Source: Escherichia phage EC148. Taken from it: a stretch of DNA of 64,000 nt. The number at the start of each line of letters is the position of its first letter. The stretch's first letter is position 1. A program made the position numbers and the translations under genes. Location: the sequence record NC_106721.1. The stretch is one strand, 5' to 3'. The notes below the pieces were generated by a model. That model did no database searches. It saw only the letters and a program-made list of their open reading frames with translations, and was not told the DNA's origin. This document shows positions 1 through 6,840 of this stretch, piece by piece.

Positions 1-101
1 TTTACCATAATGAGCGAGTAAGGATTTTGATGTATTCTTACCTAACCGTTTGTCACTTACTACTAATCGAAATACTTTCATTTCGAAATCCTCTATTAAA
101 A

Positions 102-179
102 TGGAAGCGGGTGCAGGAATCGAACCTACCTCTTTCTAGCTTATGAGACTAGCGATCTCTACCAGAGATCTAACCCGCA
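102..179 (-). tRNA. tRNA, anticodon CAU (Met/fMet- or Ile2-type)
   Basis: Cloverleaf folded by eye on minus strand: CCA encoded (plus 102-104 TGG), acceptor 106-112, T-arm 113-129 with T-loop TTCGATT, anticodon loop CTCATAA (plus 141-147); 1:72 pair appears unpaired (U-U). Confidence 0.5.
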
Positions 180-185
180 ATTGTT

Positions 186-261
186 TGGTCAGTGCGGCAG
201 GACTCGAACCTGCGACCCGAAGCATCCAAGGCTCCCACGCTACCAACTGCGCTACGCACTG
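186..261 (-). tRNA. tRNA-Pro (anticodon UGG)
   Basis: Perfect 7-bp acceptor stem (CAGTGCG/CGCACTG), T-arm GGTTCGAGTCC, anticodon stem GGAGC/GCTTC with loop CTTGGAT, CCA encoded. Confidence 0.7.
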
Positions 262-270
262 TTAATTCTT

Positions 271-468
271 TTATTGTGGAGGAATATTAATAATTCGTCC
301 GTCTACACAATAAACGGTACTAGGAATTGTACTATATATGTAGAAATTCTTTATATTACTCTCTCCGCCACAGAAATTTTTAGCAAATTCATACTCTTTA
401 TTAATGGTTGAGTCAAGTTTAAAACAACCAGTAAGTAGGAATACAGACAGCAGTAAAACTTTTTTCAT
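271..468 (-). CDS. small lipoprotein (signal peptide plus lipobox LLTGC), 65 aa
   Basis: N-terminus MKKVLLLSVFLLTGC; AGGAAA Shine-Dalgarno upstream; own promoter at 501-529. Confidence 0.55.
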   Translation of the reverse strand: MKKVLLLSVFLLTGCFKLDSTINKEYEFAKNFCGGESNIKNFYIYSTIPSTVYCVDGRIINIPPQ

Positions 469-500
469 TTTGCTTTCCTTCTCAACACTTTATAAGGTAT

Positions 501-529
501 ATTATACAGAGAATTAAGCATAATAGCAA
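501..529 (-). promoter_or_regulatory. sigma70-type promoter (minus strand) for the lipoprotein gene
   Basis: Read on minus strand: -35 TTGCTA, 17-nt spacer, -10 TATAAT, with A-rich upstream and extended TG. Confidence 0.6.
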
Positions 530-679
530 ATGAATTTTTAATAAATTTACTTATTGTGTAGGCCACCTGGAGGCTACCAACCCCACGGCTGACAAAGAAG
601 TTTGCGAGACCTCTCTTAAGTGCCAGAATAGACCCGCCGATCTATCGGAACCTACATAATAAGTAAACTTTATAGTGTC

Positions 680-799
680 ATTCTAGACAGGACTCGAACC
701 TGTTATCACTTGTGCGGACTTACGAGAACCATTCTTTCACTCGAATCGAACGAGCTTCTGCCCTCGCCAAGCTGGTTTCCCCATCAACCACGCTAGAAT
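680..799 (-). ncRNA. tRNA-like element, about 120 nt, not resolvable as a canonical tRNA
   Basis: Perfect T-arm ACAGG-TTCGAGT-CCTGT (plus 687-703) and an exact 7-bp acceptor-like pairing between plus 680-686 and 793-799, but 120 nt apart; second T-arm-like motif at plus 739-755. Confidence 0.25.
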
Positions 800-921
800 G
801 TTTGATTGTTTTCAGTGCAAGAGTCCGAGTCTTGGACACGACCGCTTCGCAAGTACATAGGCAGCTTATCATGAGTCAGCACTTCCGAATTGCTAGCTCC
901 GTGTTCTGCACTGAAATTTTA

Positions 922-1269
922 TTAGTTTAACCGTAAAGTATTATCTACTTCACCATTAATTGTTCGGCATTCTTCTGGGATTGCTGGTGTAGCCTTATAT
1001 TCCCACCATTCAGAACCGTCGTATTCACCACGTTCTAACCAAGTTCCATCAGTAAACCACACGTTACCATAAAGCAATTGCCCACCGAAACCAGAATCAT
1101 ATTTAAAGTCTAGATTATTTAGAAAATCTTCAATATCTTTTTCTGTATAACCTACGGGTAACACCCAAACTTCTTTGTCCCCATAATAACCGAATTCTAT
1201 CTTAATACACTTAACTTCAGAATTAATATTCTTTAAGGCAAGTAACAATTCTTCTTTAGCATTAATCAT
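922..1269 (-). CDS. hypothetical protein, 115 aa, Trp/Tyr/Gly-rich
   Basis: Intact ORF between tRNA genes on the same strand as the tRNAs. Confidence 0.5.
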   Translation of the reverse strand: MINAKEELLLALKNINSEVKCIKIEFGYYGDKEVWVLPVGYTEKDIEDFLNNLDFKYDSGFGGQLLYGNVWFTDGTWLERGEYDGSEWWEYKATPAIPEECRTINGEVDNTLRLN

Positions 1270-1295
1270 AGCATATTTCTCGTACTAGTTTAATT

Positions 1296-1372
1296 TGGCG
1301 CGACCGATGGGATTTGAACCCACATTCCCTCCCGTGACAGGGGAGTACCATTACCAAGCCAGCCCCGGTCGC
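1296..1372 (-). tRNA. tRNA-Asp (anticodon GUC)
   Basis: Acceptor GCGACCG/CGGTCGC perfect, T-loop TTCAAAT, anticodon stem CTCCC/GGGAG with loop CTGTCAC, CCA encoded. Confidence 0.65.
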
Positions 1373-1381
1373 ATAATTCAT

Positions 1382-1567
1382 TTACTCAGCTTTGAGTTTT
1401 TCAATAGCTGCATTAAGTTCTTTAAGAAACTTTTTTCGTACATTAAGACGGTTGAGACTTACTAGTATATCATGTTTAAGTTCTTCGATGTATTTCTTCT
1501 CAACTTCAATATTGTTGATAGTGCTATCACGATGAACTTCTAGCTGTGCAATTACATTCTTGGACAT
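1382..1567 (-). CDS. hypothetical small coiled-coil protein, 61 aa
   Basis: ORF with charged heptad-like sequence; co-oriented with neighbours. Confidence 0.4.
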   Translation of the reverse strand: MSKNVIAQLEVHRDSTINNIEVEKKYIEELKHDILVSLNRLNVRKKFLKELNAAIEKLKAE

Positions 1568-1669
1568 GCTTGTTTCCTCAGTTATTAATGAAAATGGTAT
1601 CTGTGACTGAATTCGATGTCAGCAATGATAGCTGGTTGGCTACCGGTTTACTTAACTCTACACAGAATT

Positions 1670-1753
1670 TGGCGGGCCGTGTAGGATTCGAACCTACGTT
1701 GTCTTTCGACATGGATTAACAGTCCACCGCCAAACCGCTTGGCTAACGACCCT
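1670..1753 (-). tRNA. tRNA with anticodon GUU (Asn-type) and a 13-nt variable arm
   Basis: Acceptor GGGTCGT/ACGGCCC, D-stem GCCA/TGGC, anticodon stem GTGGA/TCCAT with loop CTGTTAA, variable arm GTCGAAAGACAAC, T-arm GTAGG-TTCGAAT-CCTAC, CCA encoded; 84 nt. Confidence 0.5.
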
Positions 1754-1904
1754 AAATTTATATTGCTGACTAGGATTTTCACCTAGACGGAGTTAGCACC
1801 GTAGCGTGTAGCGGCATACCTCTCCAAACCGTGCCTCATCTTTCAATTACGGAGACAGTGTTCCTACGCGTGCCTGAATTGATTTAACAACTCTTTCAGC
1901 AAAT

Positions 1905-1980
1905 TGGACGACCGCATGAGATTTGAACTCACATAAAAAGGATTTGCAATCCTTCGCCTAAGCCATTCAGCCAACGGTCG
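1905..1980 (-). tRNA. tRNA-Cys (anticodon GCA)
   Basis: Acceptor with one G-U pair, T-loop TTCAAAT, anticodon stem AAGGA/TCCTT with loop TTGCAAA, CCA encoded. Confidence 0.65.
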
Positions 1981-2028
1981 ATTTATCTTGTTCTGTCATG
2001 TTGCTTCTCCAGTTCAATTTATGTAATT

Positions 2029-2057
2029 ATTATACAGAACTTTTGGAAACTAAGCAA
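2029..2057 (-). promoter_or_regulatory. sigma70-type promoter (minus) upstream of tRNA-Cys
   Basis: -35 TTGCTT / 17 nt / -10 TATAAT on minus strand. Confidence 0.55.
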
Positions 2058-2337
2058 CTACATTTTTTAAAAATTTGATGCCTTTCTTTTTCTTCTTATA
2101 TTTCCACGTTAAGGGATTCTGTCGATTATGAACGCTTGAGATCTTTGTCTCGTCAAAGTTCTTCAATATCATGTAATCACAGGATAATTGTTCTAATGGA
2201 ATGTGATCACCGTCAAAAGCGTATACATAAGGCTGTTGACTAGCACGATAATGATAGACTTTGTTAATTCTACGCTTCAGCAACTTATCCGCGCAGTAAA
2301 TAAAGAAGTTTTCAGGATGCATCAGCAGCTCCCTCAA
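2050..2337 (-). CDS. hypothetical protein, 95 aa
   Basis: ORF co-oriented with the tRNA island. Confidence 0.4.
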   Translation of the reverse strand: MRELLMHPENFFIYCADKLLKRRINKVYHYRASQQPYVYAFDGDHIPLEQLSCDYMILKNFDETKISSVHNRQNPLTWKYKKKKKGIKFLKNVVA

Positions 2338-2339
2338 TT

Positions 2340-2414
2340 TGGTGCACCCTGTTCGTATCGAACGAACCTCTCAAGCTCTTCAGGCAAGCGCTAATCCATC
2401 TCAGCTAAAGGTGC
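2340..2414 (-). tRNA. tRNA-like, anticodon not resolved (possibly CCU); may be degenerate
   Basis: Acceptor pairing plus 2344-2350 with 2408-2414 and perfect T-arm GTTCG-TTCGATA-CGAAC, CCA encoded; only a 4/5-bp anticodon stem could be found. Confidence 0.35.
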
Positions 2415-2420
2415 AAATTT

Positions 2421-2497
2421 TGGCAAACCTACTAGGACTCGAACCTAGACCGTACGGTTTTGGAGACCGACATGCTGTCCAGTAACACTCTAGGAAT
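2421..2497 (-). tRNA. tRNA-Trp (anticodon CCA)
   Basis: T-arm CTAGG-TTCGAGT-CCTAG, anticodon arm CGGT-CTCCAAA-ACCG closely resembling E. coli tRNA-Trp (from memory); acceptor stem has two U-U mismatches; CCA encoded. Confidence 0.5.
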
Positions 2498-2505
2498 GCA
2501 GGAAT

Positions 2506-2582
2506 TGGCGTCCTGTGCGGGGATCGAACCCACAAATCCTACCTTGAAAGGGTAGTGACTTTACCAGTTTGTCTAACAGGAC
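2506..2582 (-). tRNA. tRNA-Glu (anticodon UUC)
   Basis: Perfect acceptor GTCCTGT/ACAGGAC, T-loop TTCGATC, anticodon stem CTACC/GGTAG with loop CTTTCAA, CCA encoded. Confidence 0.7.
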
Positions 2583-2589
2583 TTAAATT

Positions 2590-2680
2590 TGGTGTTGGAT
2601 GATGGAGTCGAACCACCCGAGACCCTTCCGAGTCGGCAGATTTACAGTCTGCTTCGCTACCTCTACGATACTAATCCAAC
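2590..2680 (-). tRNA. tRNA-Tyr (anticodon GUA), about 18-nt variable arm
   Basis: Acceptor GTTGGAT/ATCCAAC perfect, anticodon stem GCAGA/TCTGC with loop CTGTAAA, extended variable arm forming a mini-hairpin, T-arm GGTGG-TTCGACT-CCATC; 91 nt. Confidence 0.6.
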
Positions 2681-2761
2681 ATATTTAAAAGTATTCAAAT
2701 ACTAGTTTAAACACTTTTAGATATGTTTCCAAATTAGATAACTATTATATCAAGTTTTATG

Positions 2762-2800
2762 GCACTGAGCAAGTCAAATTTTAAAGAACTTGCTCAGTGC
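2762..2800. terminator. 12-bp-stem hairpin (possible terminator) just downstream of the TGA-containing ORF
   Basis: GCACTGAGCAAG ... CTTGCTCAGTGC inverted repeat; weak T-run. Confidence 0.4.
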
Positions 2801-2808
2801 TGTATTAG

Positions 2809-3084
2809 TTAGTCGAACTTAGGAGCGACAGTTAAGGAGAATGGAAGTTCGAAAACTTCTTCGCCCTCATCACTAACAGTAATTACACGACCTTTAAGTT
2901 CAGACATTGAAATATCAATATCAGCTTTTGCATCTGGAGCCATGCCAGCTTCAATACATTTAGCTTTAACTTCCGGCAGAAGTTCTACATCGTAGAAATA
3001 AAGCCATTCAATCTCACCTTCCCAGCCTTCTCAGGATTTACAGATTGCACTTTCAATACCAGTTGCTATAACACGATTTTGCAT
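2809..3084 (-). CDS. hypothetical protein interrupted by an in-frame TGA at codon 18 (readthrough candidate or disrupted gene)
   Basis: ATG at plus 3084-3082 with GAAGGAG Shine-Dalgarno 7 nt upstream; frame reads MQNRVIATGIESAICKS-TGA-EGWEGEIEWLYFYDVELL... to TAA at plus 2811-2809. Confidence 0.35.
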
Positions 3085-3174
3085 TCGTTAACTCCTTCAT
3101 CAATTTATATAACTATTATACCAGAAATTTAAAGCAAAAGGCAAGTACATTTTTAAAAATTCTGTTTGGAGGAG

Positions 3175-3381
3175 CTAAACTCCAGATTCTTCAGCTAAGT
3201 CTAGGCTAATAAGAGATATAGCCATAATTGCTGCTCCGTGTTCTCTTTCTCCTGTCTCTTTAGCTAGGGTTATAATATCAAGAAATTGCTTATGAAAGTC
3301 TGCAACCTCTTGAGTCATACCTGCCTCAGCAATCATGCCTTTAAGCATGAAACGTTGTGCGGTAATTTCGGGATTAGCCAT
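3175..3381 (-). CDS. hypothetical protein, 68 aa
   Basis: ORF; start overlaps stop of upstream small ORF (ATGGCTAA arrangement). Confidence 0.45.
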   Translation of the reverse strand: MANPEITAQRFMLKGMIAEAGMTQEVADFHKQFLDIITLAKETGEREHGAAIMAISLISLDLAEESGV

Positions 3382-3541
3382 GTTGTTTCTCCAGTTTCAT
3401 GTTTAATAGTCTACAAATAAAATCAATGTCTTCATCTGTGCCTAGATCTCTATCTTCAAGAGTTGCCTTGAAGTTTTTCGTCAATTCCATGAGGATAACT
3501 TCTCTAGAACGACGTGTTGGCGGAGGTGGATGTCTATACAT
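3374..3541 (-). CDS. hypothetical small protein, 55 aa (MYRHPPPPTRR...)
   Basis: Hand-translated; AAGGAAA Shine-Dalgarno upstream; below the length cut-off of the supplied ORF track. Confidence 0.35.
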   Translation of the reverse strand: MYRHPPPPTRRSREVILMELTKNFKATLEDRDLGTDEDIDFICRLLNMKLEKQHG

Positions 3542-3556
3542 CTTATTTCCTTAAGT

Positions 3557-3633
3557 TGGTAGGGGTGGTGGGATTCGAACCCACAAAACCTGAATTTTAA
3601 GTCCAGTACCTATACCAATTCGATTACACCCCC
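3557..3633 (-). tRNA. tRNA with anticodon UAA (Leu-type anticodon) but short 5-nt variable arm
   Basis: Acceptor GGGGGTG/CACCCCT (one G-U), T-arm GTGGG-TTCGAAT-CCCAC, anticodon stem CTGGA/TTCAG with loop CTTAAAA, CCA encoded; D-stem poorly defined. Confidence 0.5.
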
Positions 3634-3734
3634 ATGTAATCAGTTTATTAGTTGATACATATTATAGCCTAGTGAAAATCCTACTACTAGTCCCACAAAC
3701 CAACCAATATAATAATCTTTTAGTTTCACAGGTA

Positions 3735-3920
3735 TTATCCTCGTTCAATATCTAGGGAAACACCGCAGTTAGGATTAATACCTGTACCGTTGCAATTTGA
3801 ACAAATCCAGATATTGCAAAAAGTATCTCCTGCTTCTGCATCAGAACTTTCACCAATTCCCCTACACTCAGGGCAGGCACATTCTTCTAGCTCTTGCTTG
3901 AGTTCTTGAAACTTGGACAT
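3735..3920 (-). CDS. Cys-rich zinc-ribbon-like small protein, 61 aa
   Basis: Paired Cys motifs CACPEC ... CSNCNG. Confidence 0.45.
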   Translation of the reverse strand: MSKFQELKQELEECACPECRGIGESSDAEAGDTFCNIWICSNCNGTGINPNCGVSLDIERG

Positions 3921-3929
3921 ATAGTCTCC

Positions 3930-4121
3930 TTAGTCAATTACTTTTGAGGCTTCAAGGGAGTCGATATAGTATACGTTTTCTACCATAATCATATAATCTG
4001 CCACTTTATCCATAGCTTGGGCCTCAGAGGTAGCTCTGGCTAACCTATATCCTTTTTTATATTCATCCGGGTATTCTCTATCTTGAATAAATACAACATA
4101 AACTATGTATAATTCCACTTG
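3930..4121 (-). CDS. hypothetical protein; start uncertain (possible GTG start)
   Basis: The supplied ORF 3930-4265 runs through tRNA genes at 4139-4216, so the true start must lie below about 4130. Confidence 0.3.
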   Translation of the reverse strand, partial: QVELYIVYVVFIQDREYPDEYKKGYRLARATSEAQAMDKVADYMIMVENVYYIDSLEASKVID

Positions 4122-4138
4122 TAATCCCCTAATTAAGT

Positions 4139-4216
4139 TGGTGGCTCCCCGAGGATTCGAACCTACGTACCTTCCGGTTATGAGCCGGGTGCTCATACCA
4201 TATGAGCTTGAGAACC
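4139..4216 (-). tRNA. tRNA, anticodon CAU (Met/Ile2-type)
   Basis: Acceptor with two G-U pairs, D-stem GCTC/GAGC, anticodon stem CCGG/CCGG with loop CTCATAA, weak 3-bp T-stem around TTCGAAT, CCA encoded. Confidence 0.5.
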
Positions 4217-4222
4217 AGAATT

Positions 4223-4311
4223 TGGCGGAAGAAGTGGGAATCGAACCCACAAGGCTATATTTCAAACCGACAGATTAGCAATCTGCTGCAATACCGTTAT
4301 GCTATTCTTCC
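4223..4311 (-). tRNA. tRNA-Ser (anticodon GCU), type II
   Basis: Perfect acceptor GGAAGAA/TTCTTCC, anticodon stem GCAGA/TCTGT with loop TTGCTAA, long variable arm, T-arm GTGGG-TTCGATT-CCCAC; 89 nt. Confidence 0.65.
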
Positions 4312-4326
4312 GAATTTATAAGATAT

Positions 4327-4355
4327 ATTATATTAGAAATTTAGCTTCATAGCAA
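4327..4355 (-). promoter_or_regulatory. sigma70-type promoter (minus) driving the tRNA-Ser / tRNA-CAU cluster
   Basis: -35 TTGCTA / 17 nt / -10 TATAAT on minus strand, directly upstream of the tRNA at 4223-4311. Confidence 0.6.
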
Positions 4356-4851
4356 GAAAATTTTTCAAGTTTTCGGTAGACATCTCATCCACATCTACGG
4401 GAGAAACAAAGCCGTTTAATTTTCTAGCAAATTTTTCACCCGCAGGATCGTTGTCTCCGACAGCTACCAATTTAAAAGGTAATAATTTCAGTTGCTTTAA
4501 TAACGCTTTTCCTGGAGAAGAACCTAACATTGCCAGGGCTGGATAACCAGCGTTATGTAGCGCAACTGCCTTAAATACAGATTCAGCGATCAATACTACT
4601 TTTTCATCTCCATTGAGAGTTTCTAGTCCCCATACACACTGGGTAGTAGAATAAGTAAAATATTTAGCTTCAAAGGGACACTTACCATGACCTTTTGGAG
4701 CAGAAGGATTATACGTCTGATAGCCTCGCAACATCCCGGAGAAGTCATACAACGGGACTGTTAGCCATCCTTCCGGACTTAACCAGCAATGATATTTATC
4801 TGTATCAAATCCTCTGGATAAGAGGTGCTGTGTTAGCTCATCAACATTCAT
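4333..4851 (-). CDS. Toprim-domain protein (DnaG-like catalytic core, no zinc finger)
   Basis: Conserved Glu in VVLIAESVF and DxD in LVAVGDNDPAGEKFARKL; start set at MNVDEL because the promoter at 4882-4910 lies inside the longer ORF. Confidence 0.55.
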   Translation of the reverse strand: MNVDELTQHLLSRGFDTDKYHCWLSPEGWLTVPLYDFSGMLRGYQTYNPSAPKGHGKCPFEAKYFTYSTTQCVWGLETLNGDEKVVLIAESVFKAVALHNAGYPALAMLGSSPGKALLKQLKLLPFKLVAVGDNDPAGEKFARKLNGFVSPVDVDEMSTENLKNFLAMKLNF

Positions 4852-4881
4852 ATTTGGTTCCTCTCTCAAATTTATAGATAT

Positions 4882-4910
4882 ATTATACAGAGAATTTAGC
4901 ATTCAAGCAA
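4882..4910 (-). promoter_or_regulatory. sigma70-type promoter (minus) for the Toprim-protein gene
   Basis: -35 TTGCTT / 17 nt / -10 TATAAT on minus strand. Confidence 0.55.
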
Positions 4911-5025
4911 TCAAATTTTTTAACTTTTTAGAGGAAAATCATAGGGCACTTAAGGGTAGCAGATAAGTGGGGAGGACCAAAATTTGTGACCCCACTAAAA
5001 ATCCGGGGGCAATTTTTAAAGACCC

Positions 5026-5054
5026 CTTGACATTTTCGCTGGGGTAGTGTAAAG
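5026..5054 (+). promoter_or_regulatory. sigma70-type promoter for the plus-strand three-gene cassette
   Basis: -35 TTGACA (5026-5031), 17-nt spacer, -10 TAAAGT (5049-5054). Confidence 0.55.
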
Positions 5055-5117
5055 TATATGTTATGGATGAGTGATCAAAGAGACACACATTTTCTATATA
5101 CTAGGAGGTGTCAAAAT

Positions 5118-6107
5118 ATGACAGAAGAAGTAGCTAAGAGTCCTGAGACCGTCGCTAGCGTTGCAGCAGAACTGCACAGTCACGAGGAATCAGATAAGAA
5201 AAAGTGGGAGAAGGTCAGAGCCTACGAAGAAAAACATCGTGAACACGATGATGAAGAAGAAGATGACGATGATGAACATTGTCATAAATATGGAAAACAT
5301 AAAATGCAAGAACCAGTAAACGTATTCACTAGTGGCTTCCCTGGCCTACTGGGTGGTTACCCAGCAAACGCAGGTGCTTTCGGTGGTGAAGGTATGGGAC
5401 TATTCGGAGCTATCCTAATCGGTGCTCTATTAACCGGCGGATTCGGTGGTTTCGGTGGATTCGGTGGACGTGGTGTAGTTGGTGAAGGTACCGCAGTTGA
5501 TGCAGTACTTCAGAACCAAGATACCGCTAGTATTCTAGCAGCTATCAACACTACTCGTACAGAGGCTAACCAGGGTACTGGAGCTGTTTTAAGCGCAGTT
5601 AACAATGGTTTTAGCCAGACAACCCAAAACCAGAGCCGTGATACTCAGTCTGTACTAACTACGATCTACGGTACAGGTGCTAATCTGTCTAATCAGATCT
5701 GCCAGGAAACTCGCAACGTTATTCAGGGTCAGTTCGATCTTTCTCGCCAGATTGATCAATCTTTCGCAGCTAACCAGATAGCTCGTGCACAAGATAAGTT
5801 TGATTCTGCACAGATCGCTTTCCAGCAGACTTTACAAACTAATAACCAGTTTGCCGCTGTTCAGGCTCAGATGTGTGCTAACCAGAACTCTCTGGAACGT
5901 CAGATCGCTGAATGTTGCTGTGAACTTCAGACTGCGATCGCTGGTGTAACTACTGCGCGTATCCAGGATGAGTTAGACGCATGTCGCCTACGTGAAGCAA
6001 TCGCTGCGGGTAGCGGTGCTAACGGTCAGGTAATTAATCAAATCGCTTTAAGTCTTGGTGCTATCACTCAGACTCTGGCTGGTCTGCAGGCTAAACTGCC
6101 GGCTTAA
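5118..6107 (+). CDS. hypothetical low-complexity protein: polyacidic N-terminus, Gly-zipper hydrophobic segment, Gln/Asn/Thr-rich C-terminal region with Cys cluster
   Basis: Strong RBS TAGGAGGTG before ATG 5118; promoter at 5026-5054; translation-optimised codon choice; no recognisable catalytic motif. Confidence 0.6.
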   Translation: MTEEVAKSPETVASVAAELHSHEESDKKKWEKVRAYEEKHREHDDEEEDDDDEHCHKYGKHKMQEPVNVFTSGFPGLLGGYPANAGAFGGEGMGLFGAILIGALLTGGFGGFGGFGGRGVVGEGTAVDAVLQNQDTASILAAINTTRTEANQGTGAVLSAVNNGFSQTTQNQSRDTQSVLTTIYGTGANLSNQICQETRNVIQGQFDLSRQIDQSFAANQIARAQDKFDSAQIAFQQTLQTNNQFAAVQAQMCANQNSLERQIAECCCELQTAIAGVTTARIQDELDACRLREAIAAGSGANGQVINQIALSLGAITQTLAGLQAKLPA

Positions 6108-6128
6108 TATTAAGGGGAGGAGCCCATT

Positions 6129-6545
6129 ATGAGTAAATATGGTTTTGTAAATAACGGACTTAATCAAAGTATGGGCTCCCAGCAGCCCATTCCGGGTCTG
6201 GATAACCCCTACTTACAACAGTTGCAACAGCGTTTAGCAGAAGCGCAACAGATGCAGCAACAACTCCAGCAAAACCCTGGAAGTGTGAGTCCTATGCAAA
6301 TGATGCAGCAAATGAGCGGGCAGTCGCAAATGCCTCAACAAATGCAGCAACAGGTGCCTCAGCAGCAAGTTCAGCAACAAACCCAACAACCGCAGGTTTC
6401 TGCGGAAGGACAGGCAGTACTAGCCCTTTTCGAAGACTTCGCAAAGACAGAGGATGGGAAACAGCTTGTATCACTTATGGGTAAGTTTAATAGCTTCTGC
6501 CAAAGCCAAGTTGCAAAAGCTCAAAATGGGGGTAGTAACTCCTAA
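6129..6545 (+). CDS. hypothetical Gln-rich protein, 138 aa
   Basis: RBS AAGGGGAGG; Q-rich repeats (PQQMQQQ...). Confidence 0.6.
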   Translation: MSKYGFVNNGLNQSMGSQQPIPGLDNPYLQQLQQRLAEAQQMQQQLQQNPGSVSPMQMMQQMSGQSQMPQQMQQQVPQQQVQQQTQQPQVSAEGQAVLALFEDFAKTEDGKQLVSLMGKFNSFCQSQVAKAQNGGSNS

Positions 6546-6554
6546 GGAGGAAAT

Positions 6555-6749
6555 ATGTGTTGCAGAAAATCTGTTTCGTGCTGCCCAGTGCCTGTAGCAC
6601 GTTGTTGCTCTCCAGCAATGTTTACGCAAATACCGGCGTTCAATCCCTTTGCCTTTAAGCCTACTCTTATCCTGCCCCCTAGAGTAGATTTTCAGTCAAG
6701 ATTGGCCTCCCGTATGGGTGGTTGCTGTACACCGAGAGTATGGTTCTAA
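6555..6749 (+). CDS. hypothetical Cys-rich small protein, 64 aa
   Basis: RBS AAGGAGG; 8 Cys including CC pairs; followed by terminator hairpins. Confidence 0.55.
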   Translation: MCCRKSVSCCPVPVARCCSPAMFTQIPAFNPFAFKPTLILPPRVDFQSRLASRMGGCCTPRVWF

Positions 6750-6761
6750 ACCAAAAACAAA

Positions 6762-6795
6762 AGCCCCTGCCGAAAGGTAAGGGGCTTTTTCTTTT
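6762..6795 (+). terminator. rho-independent terminator ending the plus-strand cassette
   Basis: AGCCCCT...AGGGGCT hairpin followed by TTTTTCTTTT. Confidence 0.65.
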
Positions 6796-6799
6796 GCCT

Positions 6800-6840
6800 T
6801 AAATACAGAAAAGCCCGCGCTCTCGTAGGAAACGCGGGCT
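6800..6840 (-). terminator. rho-independent terminator for the SPFH gene (convergent with the previous one)
   Basis: GCCCGCG...CGCGGGC hairpin followed on minus strand by TTTTCTGTATTT. Confidence 0.6.

Follow-up and report, generated by a model that had tools for sequence, protein, structure and literature searches.

A natural short-arm tRNA-Leu(UAA) in T5-like coliphages, most likely charged by the host leucyl-tRNA synthetase

The window analysed here is a stretch of 64,000 nucleotides from Escherichia phage EC148 (NC_106721.1), a T5-like phage (Tequintavirus, Demerecviridae). The 12 tRNA genes that ARAGORN predicts in the window all lie on the minus strand. One of these is a tRNA-Leu(taa) of 77 nt at exactly 3557..3633 (minus strand). 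The same locus matches the Rfam tRNA family RF00005 at 3560-3633(-) with a score of 59.9 bits (E = 2.7e-11; gathering score 29), which ranks third among the 14 tRNA matches found in window positions 1-9000. The RNA sequence of this tRNA-Leu(UAA) is GGGGGUGUAAUCGAAUUGGUAUAGGUACUGGACUUAAAAUUCAGGUUUUGUGGGUUCGAAUCCCACCACCCCUACCA. Bacterial tRNA-Leu is normally a type II tRNA, characterized by a long variable arm. An earlier note on this DNA had pointed out that a leucine anticodon is here borne by a type I tRNA, and this structural claim is right. The gene, its parts and its closest co-directional neighbours are as follows.

3557..3633, minus strand: tRNA-Leu(UAA) gene, type I (short variable region), 77 nt, CCA encoded (ARAGORN, Rfam, cloverleaf drawing)
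Within the gene, minus strand: acceptor stem, 7 bp, G1.U72 through G7-C66 (sequence, cloverleaf drawing)
3608..3624, minus strand: D arm with a 3-bp stem AUC/GGU (A10-U25, U11.G24, C12-G23), G13/A22 unpaired (sequence)
Within the gene, minus strand: D loop GAAUUGGUAUA, 11 nt, with A14, A15, G18, G19, U20 and A20a (sequence)
Within the gene, minus strand: anticodon stem CUGGA/UUCAG (sequence, cloverleaf drawing)
3597..3599, minus strand: anticodon U34 A35 A36 (3599-3597) inside the loop CUUAAAA (3595-3601) (ARAGORN, sequence, Rfam)
3585..3589, minus strand: variable region G44 U45 U46 U47 U48 (GUUUU), 5 nt, stemless (sequence, cloverleaf drawing)
3568..3584, minus strand: T arm GUGGG-UUCGAAU-CCCAC, with U54, U55, C56 and A58 (sequence, Rfam, cloverleaf drawing)
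3557..3560, minus strand: discriminator A73 (3560) and encoded CCA (3559-3557) (sequence)
4142-4216, minus strand: tRNA-Ile2(CAU), counterpart of T5 tRNA-Ile2, upstream and co-directional, 40.3 bits (Rfam only, missed by ARAGORN)
4223-4311, minus strand: tRNA-Ser(GCU), 89 nt, long arm kept, upstream and co-directional (ARAGORN, Rfam)
4327..4355, minus strand: predicted sigma-70-like promoter TTGCTA-17-TATAAT, 10/12 (consensus match only)

The nucleotides marking membership of RF00005 (U8, A14, G18G19, U33, G53, U54, U55, C56, A58, C61) can all be read in the sequence. U55 and C56 of the T arm are the partners for G18 and G19, the U54:A58 pair is present, and a Levitt pairing A15:U48 is possible. 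A type II tRNA has a variable region of more than 10 nt with a stem-loop; the stemless pentanucleotide GUUUU places the present molecule outside this type, and the D arm is nonetheless of the type II leucine kind. The features read from the letters in the earlier note hold well. The 77-nt length, the anticodon UAA and the 5-nt variable arm are borne out by ARAGORN, Rfam and the sequence. The anticodon stem CTGGA/TTCAG and the loop CTTAAAA match the minus strand, though no strand had been named, and the acceptor stem and T-arm, there called good, are intact (sequence, Rfam, cloverleaf drawing). The proposed ARAGORN check of the interval returns the same 77-nt Leu(taa) call, and neither a different anticodon nor another known identity. 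A search pattern for the exact architecture of tRNA-Leu(UAA) finds one match in the window and none in 100 shuffles. The single-sequence minimum free energy (MFE) fold is no cloverleaf and its energy is no better than that of shuffles (z = -0.63); thermodynamic folding is uninformative for tRNA and was counted neither way. The fold is backed by the match to the covariance model and by the covariation among homologues described below. The anticodon 5'-UAA-3' reads UUA, as well as UUG via wobble, in an A36-A37-A38 context. This context equals that of E. coli tRNA-Leu(UAA), so that the usual anticodon-loop modifications are plausible on the phage molecule.

The predicted promoter at 4355-4327(-), a strong match of the sigma-70 kind, corresponds to the annotated P15b of T5. 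The co-directional unit behind it comprises tRNA-Ser, tRNA-Ile2, two small ORFs and tRNA-Leu(UAA). One of the ORFs lying between tRNA-Ile2 and tRNA-Leu (61 aa, 3735-3920, minus strand) exhibits two CxxCxGxG zinc-finger motifs (DnaJ-like), and is labelled "antitermination protein Q" or "DnaJ-like chaperone" in public records. Elsewhere in the window, a tRNA-like gene at 8424-8495 (minus strand, 35.5 bits, Rfam only) lies at the location of the T5 stable RNA "rnaX" region. The tRNA-Asn(GUU) at 1670-1752 (minus strand) is 83 nt long, about 10 nt of which appear as an insertion within the variable region in the Rfam alignment, against an annotated length of 78 nt for T5 tRNA-Asn. This tRNA, normally short-armed, thus appears to have an extended variable region in the window.

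The phage tRNA-Leu(UAA) aligns end to end with the tRNA-Leu of E. coli (leuZ), phage T4 and phage 201phi2-1, each 87 nt long. The sole gap in these alignments is one clean 10-nt gap, which removes the variable stem-loop. Its D arm is identical to that of the 87-nt 201phi2-1 tRNA-Leu, the same layout is found in leuZ and T4 tRNA-Leu, and the length and register of the D loop equal those of all three. We also compared the molecule, with anticodons masked, to 80 reference tRNAs of all isotypes from the present phage, T5, T4 and other loci. The six top-scoring references are all leucine tRNAs. The identities in this comparison are 0.81 for ZC08, 0.80 for 201phi2-1, 0.73 for both Vibrio phage X1 and T4, and, for the short Leu(UAG) tRNAs, 0.70 (T5_ev212) and 0.69 (Vibrio X1). 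The long-arm tRNA-Tyr of T5 comes third by raw identity (0.76), yet it scores lower in alignment. Near the bottom of the 80 references, with an identity of 0.50, stands the tRNA-Phe(GAA) of the phage itself, the obvious alternative at one mutation's distance. Since the best-scoring references are all Leu and tRNA-Phe reaches only 0.50, this comparison identifies tRNA-Leu(UAA) as a tRNA-Leu that has lost its arm, rather than another tRNA with an acquired leucine anticodon.

To describe the family to which this tRNA belongs, we scanned a viral contig collection and a collection with one genome per bacterial or archaeal species. The search pattern constrained only A14 A15, G18 G19, A20a, the CUUAAAA loop, the 5-nt variable region and the T loop. 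At least 119 viral contigs and no fewer than 119 bacterial species possess the short-arm architecture; ARAGORN calls a tRNA-Leu(taa) of 74-78 nt for 119 of the 120 matches listed in each collection. Among the matches listed, 225 unique sequences (113 viral, 112 bacterial) were taken as the family set. A73, a position free in the pattern, is found in 112 of the 113 viral and in all 112 bacterial members (224/225 in total among these listed matches). U48, equally unconstrained, is found in 111/113 and 112/112, respectively (223/225 in the same listed set). Positions 13 and 22 are unpaired in 97% of the viral and 100% of the bacterial members among the 225 sequences from the matches listed. In the same listed family the stems are paired in 91-100% of members, and each stem position exhibits three to six canonical pair types, which amounts to extensive covariation.

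The controls behave differently. U48 and A73 occur together in 22% (120/542) of the non-Leu short-arm tRNAs of the same viral loci and in 20% (13/64) of the other short-arm tRNAs of the bacterial loci, in both cases among the matches listed. U48 alone is found in about 40% of other short-arm tRNAs in these listed loci, against 223/225 in the family. The viral loci of the listed matches contain 46 further short-arm leucine tRNAs with CAA or UAG anticodons, which were not selected by the pattern and obey the same rule. Taking all short-arm Leu tRNAs of these listed viral loci together, U48 is present in 163/165 and A73 in 164/165. Thus, at the level of sequence, the unconstrained positions A73 and U48 conform across the family to what leucine identity predicts.

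The loss of the arm is largely confined to leucine tRNAs. Counts of long to short forms in the same viral loci among the matches listed are 54:1 for Ser, 20:1 for Tyr and 17:167 for Leu, the last ratio being biased for UAA by the choice of loci having one short Leu(UAA). The tRNA-Ser (89 nt) and tRNA-Tyr (91 nt) in the window likewise retain long arms according to ARAGORN. The simplest reading of these sequences is that arm loss is specific to Leu, the arm being shed only where the synthetase can spare it.

The bacterial short-arm Leu(UAA) genes are 74-77 nt long with A73 and U48. Among 80 matches listed by title, 68 are from Actinomycetota, including Nocardia, Mycobacterium, Nocardioides, Arthrobacter, Rhodococcus, Corynebacterium, Rothia and others. 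This range is far wider than the single CAA case of Streptomyces coelicolor in the literature. The phage tRNA shares with the actinobacterial type a 5-nt variable loop on a leucine tRNA body. It differs from the actinobacterial sub-type, characterized by C13 and a variable loop NNAGY (dominant form NNAGU), in having G13 and GUUUU. Its identity to 117 bacterial matches listed is 0.74 at best, with a median of 0.58. A long-arm phage tRNA-Leu, at 0.80, comes nearer to it than does any listed bacterial match, and these identities suggest that the short form arose more than once and that the phage tRNA represents a separate lineage of arm loss.

The leucine identity elements reported for E. coli leucyl-tRNA synthetase (LeuRS) are A73, A14 (with U8), the A15:U48 Levitt pair, G18G19 and A20a, together with the tertiary pairs G18:U55, G19:C56 and U54:A58 (PMC9976931; PMC6614811). 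The same reports describe the anticodon and the long arm as dispensable for E. coli LeuRS, variants without both arms being active (PMC9976931; PMC6614811). The phage tRNA-Leu(UAA) holds the whole set: A73, U8:A14, A15:U48, G18G19, A20a, U54:A58, U55 and C56. The most likely reading is that it is a working leucine tRNA leucylated by the host LeuRS, and from this complement of elements we infer such charging with good support. The view in the earlier note that the aminoacylation identity is unclear was therefore overstated, given the long-arm tRNA-Leu homologue and the full E. coli LeuRS identity set, but some uncertainty is legitimate. Published precedent points both ways: in the one published test of E. 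coli LeuRS on a natural type I tRNA-Leu from bacteria, Fan et al. (2019) report that the enzyme is inactive on the tRNA-Leu(CAA) of S. coelicolor, and describe this enzyme as charging type II tRNA-Leu only (PMC6614811). The variable loop of the S. coelicolor molecule is given there as ACAGC, with C48 (PMC6614811), so that it lacks the U48 Levitt partner on which E. coli LeuRS relies. The S. coelicolor LeuRS is reported to need a variable loop of at least 5 nt for good charging (PMC6614811); the phage loop has exactly five nucleotides, this minimum. For the Aquifex enzyme, the orientation of the arm is reported to matter (PMC2377443), and position 20 influences LeuRS activity in another system (PMC3643597). 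At this position U20 (window 3614) is found in the window and in about 10 records, and C20 in most T5-like copies; U20 is invariably present in E. coli tRNA-Leu.

Window positions 3300-3900 are 100% identical to Escherichia phage T5_ev212 and to three other records, and 394 phage records match this segment. The tRNA-Leu(UAA) gene is present at 95% identity or more in about 325 phage records, in nearly all of which it is annotated as tRNA-Leu; these phage figures are counts of records and include GenBank/RefSeq duplicates. The changes in the phB7 copy tighten pairs. T5_ev212 also possesses a second short-arm leucine tRNA of 77 nt, with anticodon UAG, the same D-loop layout and the same GUUUU.

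T5_ev212 sequence 7881-7957, minus strand: short-arm Leu(UAG), about 540 nt ahead of window position 1 (subtract 8493 from T5_ev212 coordinates to obtain window coordinates)

This short Leu(UAG) allele is found in about 160 records and the 85-nt long-arm Leu(UAG) of T5 in about 52. Short-arm leucine tRNAs are further found in other Demerecviridae (Aeromonas phage AhP_Mru1, and Vibrio phage X1 with one UAG and one UAA gene), in Ounavirinae (Escherichia phage CL1, with three genes, UAG, CAA and UAA, and Pectobacterium phage Arno18, with two) and in Schitoviridae (Pseudomonas phage ZC08). Those of X1, AhP_Mru1, CL1, Arno18 and ZC08 are all 77-79 nt long and have U48, A73 and CCA. We know of no short-arm tRNA-Leu of their own in the hosts of these phages. 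A BLAST search of 5,426 complete E. coli genomes revealed no chromosomal match to tRNA-Leu(UAA). The only E. coli matches are 23-nt T-arm stretches on plasmids (E-value about 7; for example NZ_CP065971.1, 116625-116647), which fall in genes annotated "tRNA-OTHER" on 22 large plasmids. These plasmids may be phage-plasmids carrying unusual tRNAs.

An alignment with the T5 tRNA genes, as the earlier note had proposed, was informative, though not as one might expect: the tRNA-Leu(UAA) gene is absent from reference T5 and from roughly 50 relatives, and T5 has an HNH endonuclease cassette in its stead. Between tRNA-Tyr and tRNA-Ile2, T5 exhibits the HNH homing-endonuclease gene hegA (T5 8380-9063) where the window has positions 3557-4118. 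The hegA cassette stands in for the two small ORFs and tRNA-Leu(UAA), with both flanks aligning at about 95% identity. The 61-aa ORF is accordingly missing from T5 as a result of this replacement. Homology to T5 resumes within the 3' end of the tRNA, where a 7-nt remnant, CCTACCA, is left at the junction. T5 has therefore lost the gene, which is accordingly dispensable in the laboratory. Separately, phage APCEc03 (NC_047754; 301-377 of the compared segment) has a chimeric, unfoldable tRNA: it begins as Leu(UAA), preceded by the 5' flank of that gene, and ends as the short Leu(UAG), followed by the downstream flank of the latter. It follows from this chimera that recombination between both Leu genes removed roughly 4 kb of intervening tRNA genes. 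This deletion recalls the spontaneous tRNA-region deletions of T5n and SP15m (PMC11555353).

The codon usage of the phage matches these tRNAs. Across 51 long window ORFs, leucine is most often encoded by UUA (26.6% of Leu, 22.1 per thousand codons), compared with 11.4% of Leu in a 49-kb E. coli sample analysed likewise. CUA accounts for 21.0% of Leu in the window ORFs versus 2.9% in the E. coli sample. The two short-arm leucine tRNAs of the phage (UAA and UAG) read precisely UUA and CUA. We consider it quite probable that the gene encodes a functional phage leucine tRNA, a descendant of a long-arm tRNA-Leu without the variable stem-loop, which is charged by the host LeuRS and aids UUA decoding. 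The ancestral long-arm tRNA-Leu would have lost its variable stem-loop. During infection, tRNA-Leu(UAA) would be transcribed together with the neighbouring tRNAs and then processed. The host leucyl-tRNA synthetase would most likely charge it with leucine, reading A73 and the core formed by the D loop, the T loop and the Levitt pair, and not the anticodon or a long arm. The charged tRNA would then supplement the decoding of UUA (and of UUG by wobble), UUA being a minor codon in the host, to the benefit of phage translation.

An alternative reading accepts the leucine charging and regards the loss of the arm itself as an adaptive counter-defence, by which the tRNA evades a nuclease, toxin or other factor recognizing the long arm while LeuRS can still charge it. 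We regard this as rather unlikely, and we extend the same reservation to its detailed form, in which the arm-less tRNA sustains translation while the host tRNA-Leu is attacked. The recurrence of short-arm Leu in the unrelated Demerecviridae, Ounavirinae and Schitoviridae, whose hosts have long-armed tRNA-Leu, would fit such a pressure. So would the fact that the short form is the majority in T5-like phages (about 325 and about 160 records, against about 52 with the long form). The tRNAs of T5-like phages are reported to protect infection against tRNA nucleases: a tRNA-Tyr rescues it from retron Eco7 (PMC11555353) and a tRNA-Lys from PrrC and PARIS (PMC11555353; PMC11464382). Human Schlafen 11 is described as cutting type II tRNAs (cited in PMC13056530). 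However, our literature search found no bacterial system that targets tRNA-Leu via its variable arm, and the paper on a bacterial Schlafen reports cleavage in the anticodon arm, with tRNA-Leu unmentioned. The phage Ser and Tyr tRNAs keep their arms, so that the pressure must be specific to Leu or else be outweighed by synthetase constraints. Moreover, the same short form is chromosomal in many Actinomycetota, where no phage-defence explanation is needed, and a simple tolerated loss accounts for all data. If the counter-defence reading were true, the leucine decoder of T5-like, Felix-O1-like and N4-like phages would be immune-proof, and enterobacterial LeuRS would efficiently charge a natural type I tRNA-Leu, against the statement that it charges type II only.

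It is very improbable that the tRNA is not leucylated at all, being instead mischarged (most likely by PheRS) or left uncharged, and that it recodes UUA/UUG or acts as a decoy or regulator. A35, A36 and A73 are common to tRNA-Phe, position 34 is all that separates the loop CUUAAAA from the CUGAAAA of a tRNA-Phe, and the report that E. coli LeuRS does not charge the type I tRNA-Leu of Streptomyces (PMC6614811) points in the same direction. Yet G34, a major PheRS determinant (PMC9976931), is absent, and the body is 50% identical to the phage tRNA-Phe, among the lowest values of the 80 references, whereas leucine tRNAs reach 73-81%. The family-wide conservation of the Leu-specific pair A15:U48, the D-loop layout and A73 would be unexpected for a phenylalanine acceptor or a decoy, and recoding the phage's top leucine codon would be highly disruptive. 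Hardly credible is a decaying relic, that is, a tRNA pseudogene left by an accidental deletion: the missing gene in reference T5, the broken chimeric copy in APCEc03 and the MFE fold other than a cloverleaf could be cited for it, but all four stems are preserved, none of the invariant tRNA nucleotides is missing and CCA is encoded, identity of at least 95% is kept in about 325 records with compensatory changes in distant homologues, and the same architecture is retained in viruses (at least 119 contigs) and in bacteria (at least 119 species).

Two other candidates were rejected. A tRNA-Phe derivative (G34U) disagrees with the 50% body identity to the phage tRNA-Phe and with the presence of U at position 34 and A at position 59, where the PheRS nucleotides are G34 and U59. 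An ochre suppressor needs the anticodon 5'-UUA-3' to read the stop codon UAA, and the polarity is wrong: as 5'-U34 A35 A36-3' lies in a standard 7-nt loop with U33 and A37, tRNA-Leu(UAA) reads UUA/UUG and not UAA.

According to textbooks and recent reviews, the long variable arm is universal in tRNA-Leu outside animal mitochondria. The short-arm tRNA-Leu of Streptomyces is the one bacterial exception and is said to be rare. In the literature that we searched, the term "Type I tRNALeu" appears in a single paper, and we found no description of short-arm leucine tRNAs in phages. In particular, a short-arm phage tRNA-Leu is not discussed in the eLife phage-tRNA, bacterial Schlafen and SP15 retron papers. 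Type I tRNA-Leu as such is already known from animal mitochondria (PMC9976931) and, as reported, from S. coelicolor (PMC6614811). Hundreds of records already give this particular gene as tRNA-Leu, and its job is most likely the ordinary one. What it represents is a natural arm-less tRNA-Leu of coliphages, in whose hosts the synthetase meets no native short-arm substrate. Unusual by the textbook, it is no one-off: in T5-like phages most leucine tRNAs are of the short-arm form, which recurs in at least three families/subfamilies of phages infecting Gammaproteobacteria and is common in Actinomycetota. It offers a natural test case for whether enterobacterial LeuRS charges an arm-less tRNA-Leu. 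It also bears on tRNA annotation, where isotype models may under-score short-arm Leu genes, and adds a structural class to the debate on whether phage tRNAs serve codon supply or the evasion of tRNA-targeting defences. With the short form being common in phages and Actinomycetota, its interest is moderate and mainly for tRNA and phage specialists.

Among known systems, the long-arm Leu(UAA) tRNAs (leuZ, T4, 201phi2-1) have much in common with the phage molecule, which outside the arm is 80% identical to that of 201phi2-1 and 73% to that of T4: the CUUAAAA loop, the 3-bp D stem with 13/22 unpaired, A14, A15, the G18G19-U-A20a layout, U48, the T loop and A73. E. coli leuZ likewise has G1.U72 and the G13/A22 mismatch. 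The difference is one of the arm, the long-arm molecules being 87 nt long with a 15-nt variable stem-loop, and the phage tRNA 77 nt long with five unpaired nucleotides. The sole leucine tRNA of reference T5, tRNA-Leu1(UAG), lies in the same tRNA-rich region as in the present phage. It is an unrelated-looking, long-armed molecule of 85 nt, whereas in the present lineage this position is taken by the 77-nt short-arm Leu(UAG).

The S. coelicolor type I tRNA-Leu(CAA) resembles the phage tRNA in being bacterial-type with a 5-nt variable loop, in sharing the cytoplasm with long-arm tRNA-Leu and in the reported importance of U8:A14 (PMC6614811). It differs in its CAA anticodon and ACAGC/C48, against UAA and GUUUU/U48 in the phage. 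It is further described as served by a co-evolved LeuRS that does not use A73, while E. coli LeuRS leaves it uncharged (PMC6614811). Unlike it, the phage tRNA must depend on an enterobacterial LeuRS without a native short-arm substrate. The animal mitochondrial tRNA-Leu(UUR) is also a type I tRNA with anticodon UAA, whose identity is read via A73 and A14 without a long arm (PMC9976931). That molecule is degenerate and floppy and has a dedicated mitochondrial LeuRS, in contrast to the fully canonical elbow and core of the phage tRNA. A further known system is the engineered minimal E. coli tRNA-Leu of Larkin et al. (2002), which has neither anticodon arm nor variable arm and is reported to be charged by E. 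coli LeuRS as long as A73 and the tertiary contacts of the D and T loops are intact (PMC9976931). The phage tRNA keeps precisely these. Those constructs, as described, are artificial and were assayed in vitro (PMC9976931), whereas the phage tRNA-Leu(UAA) is a natural molecule.
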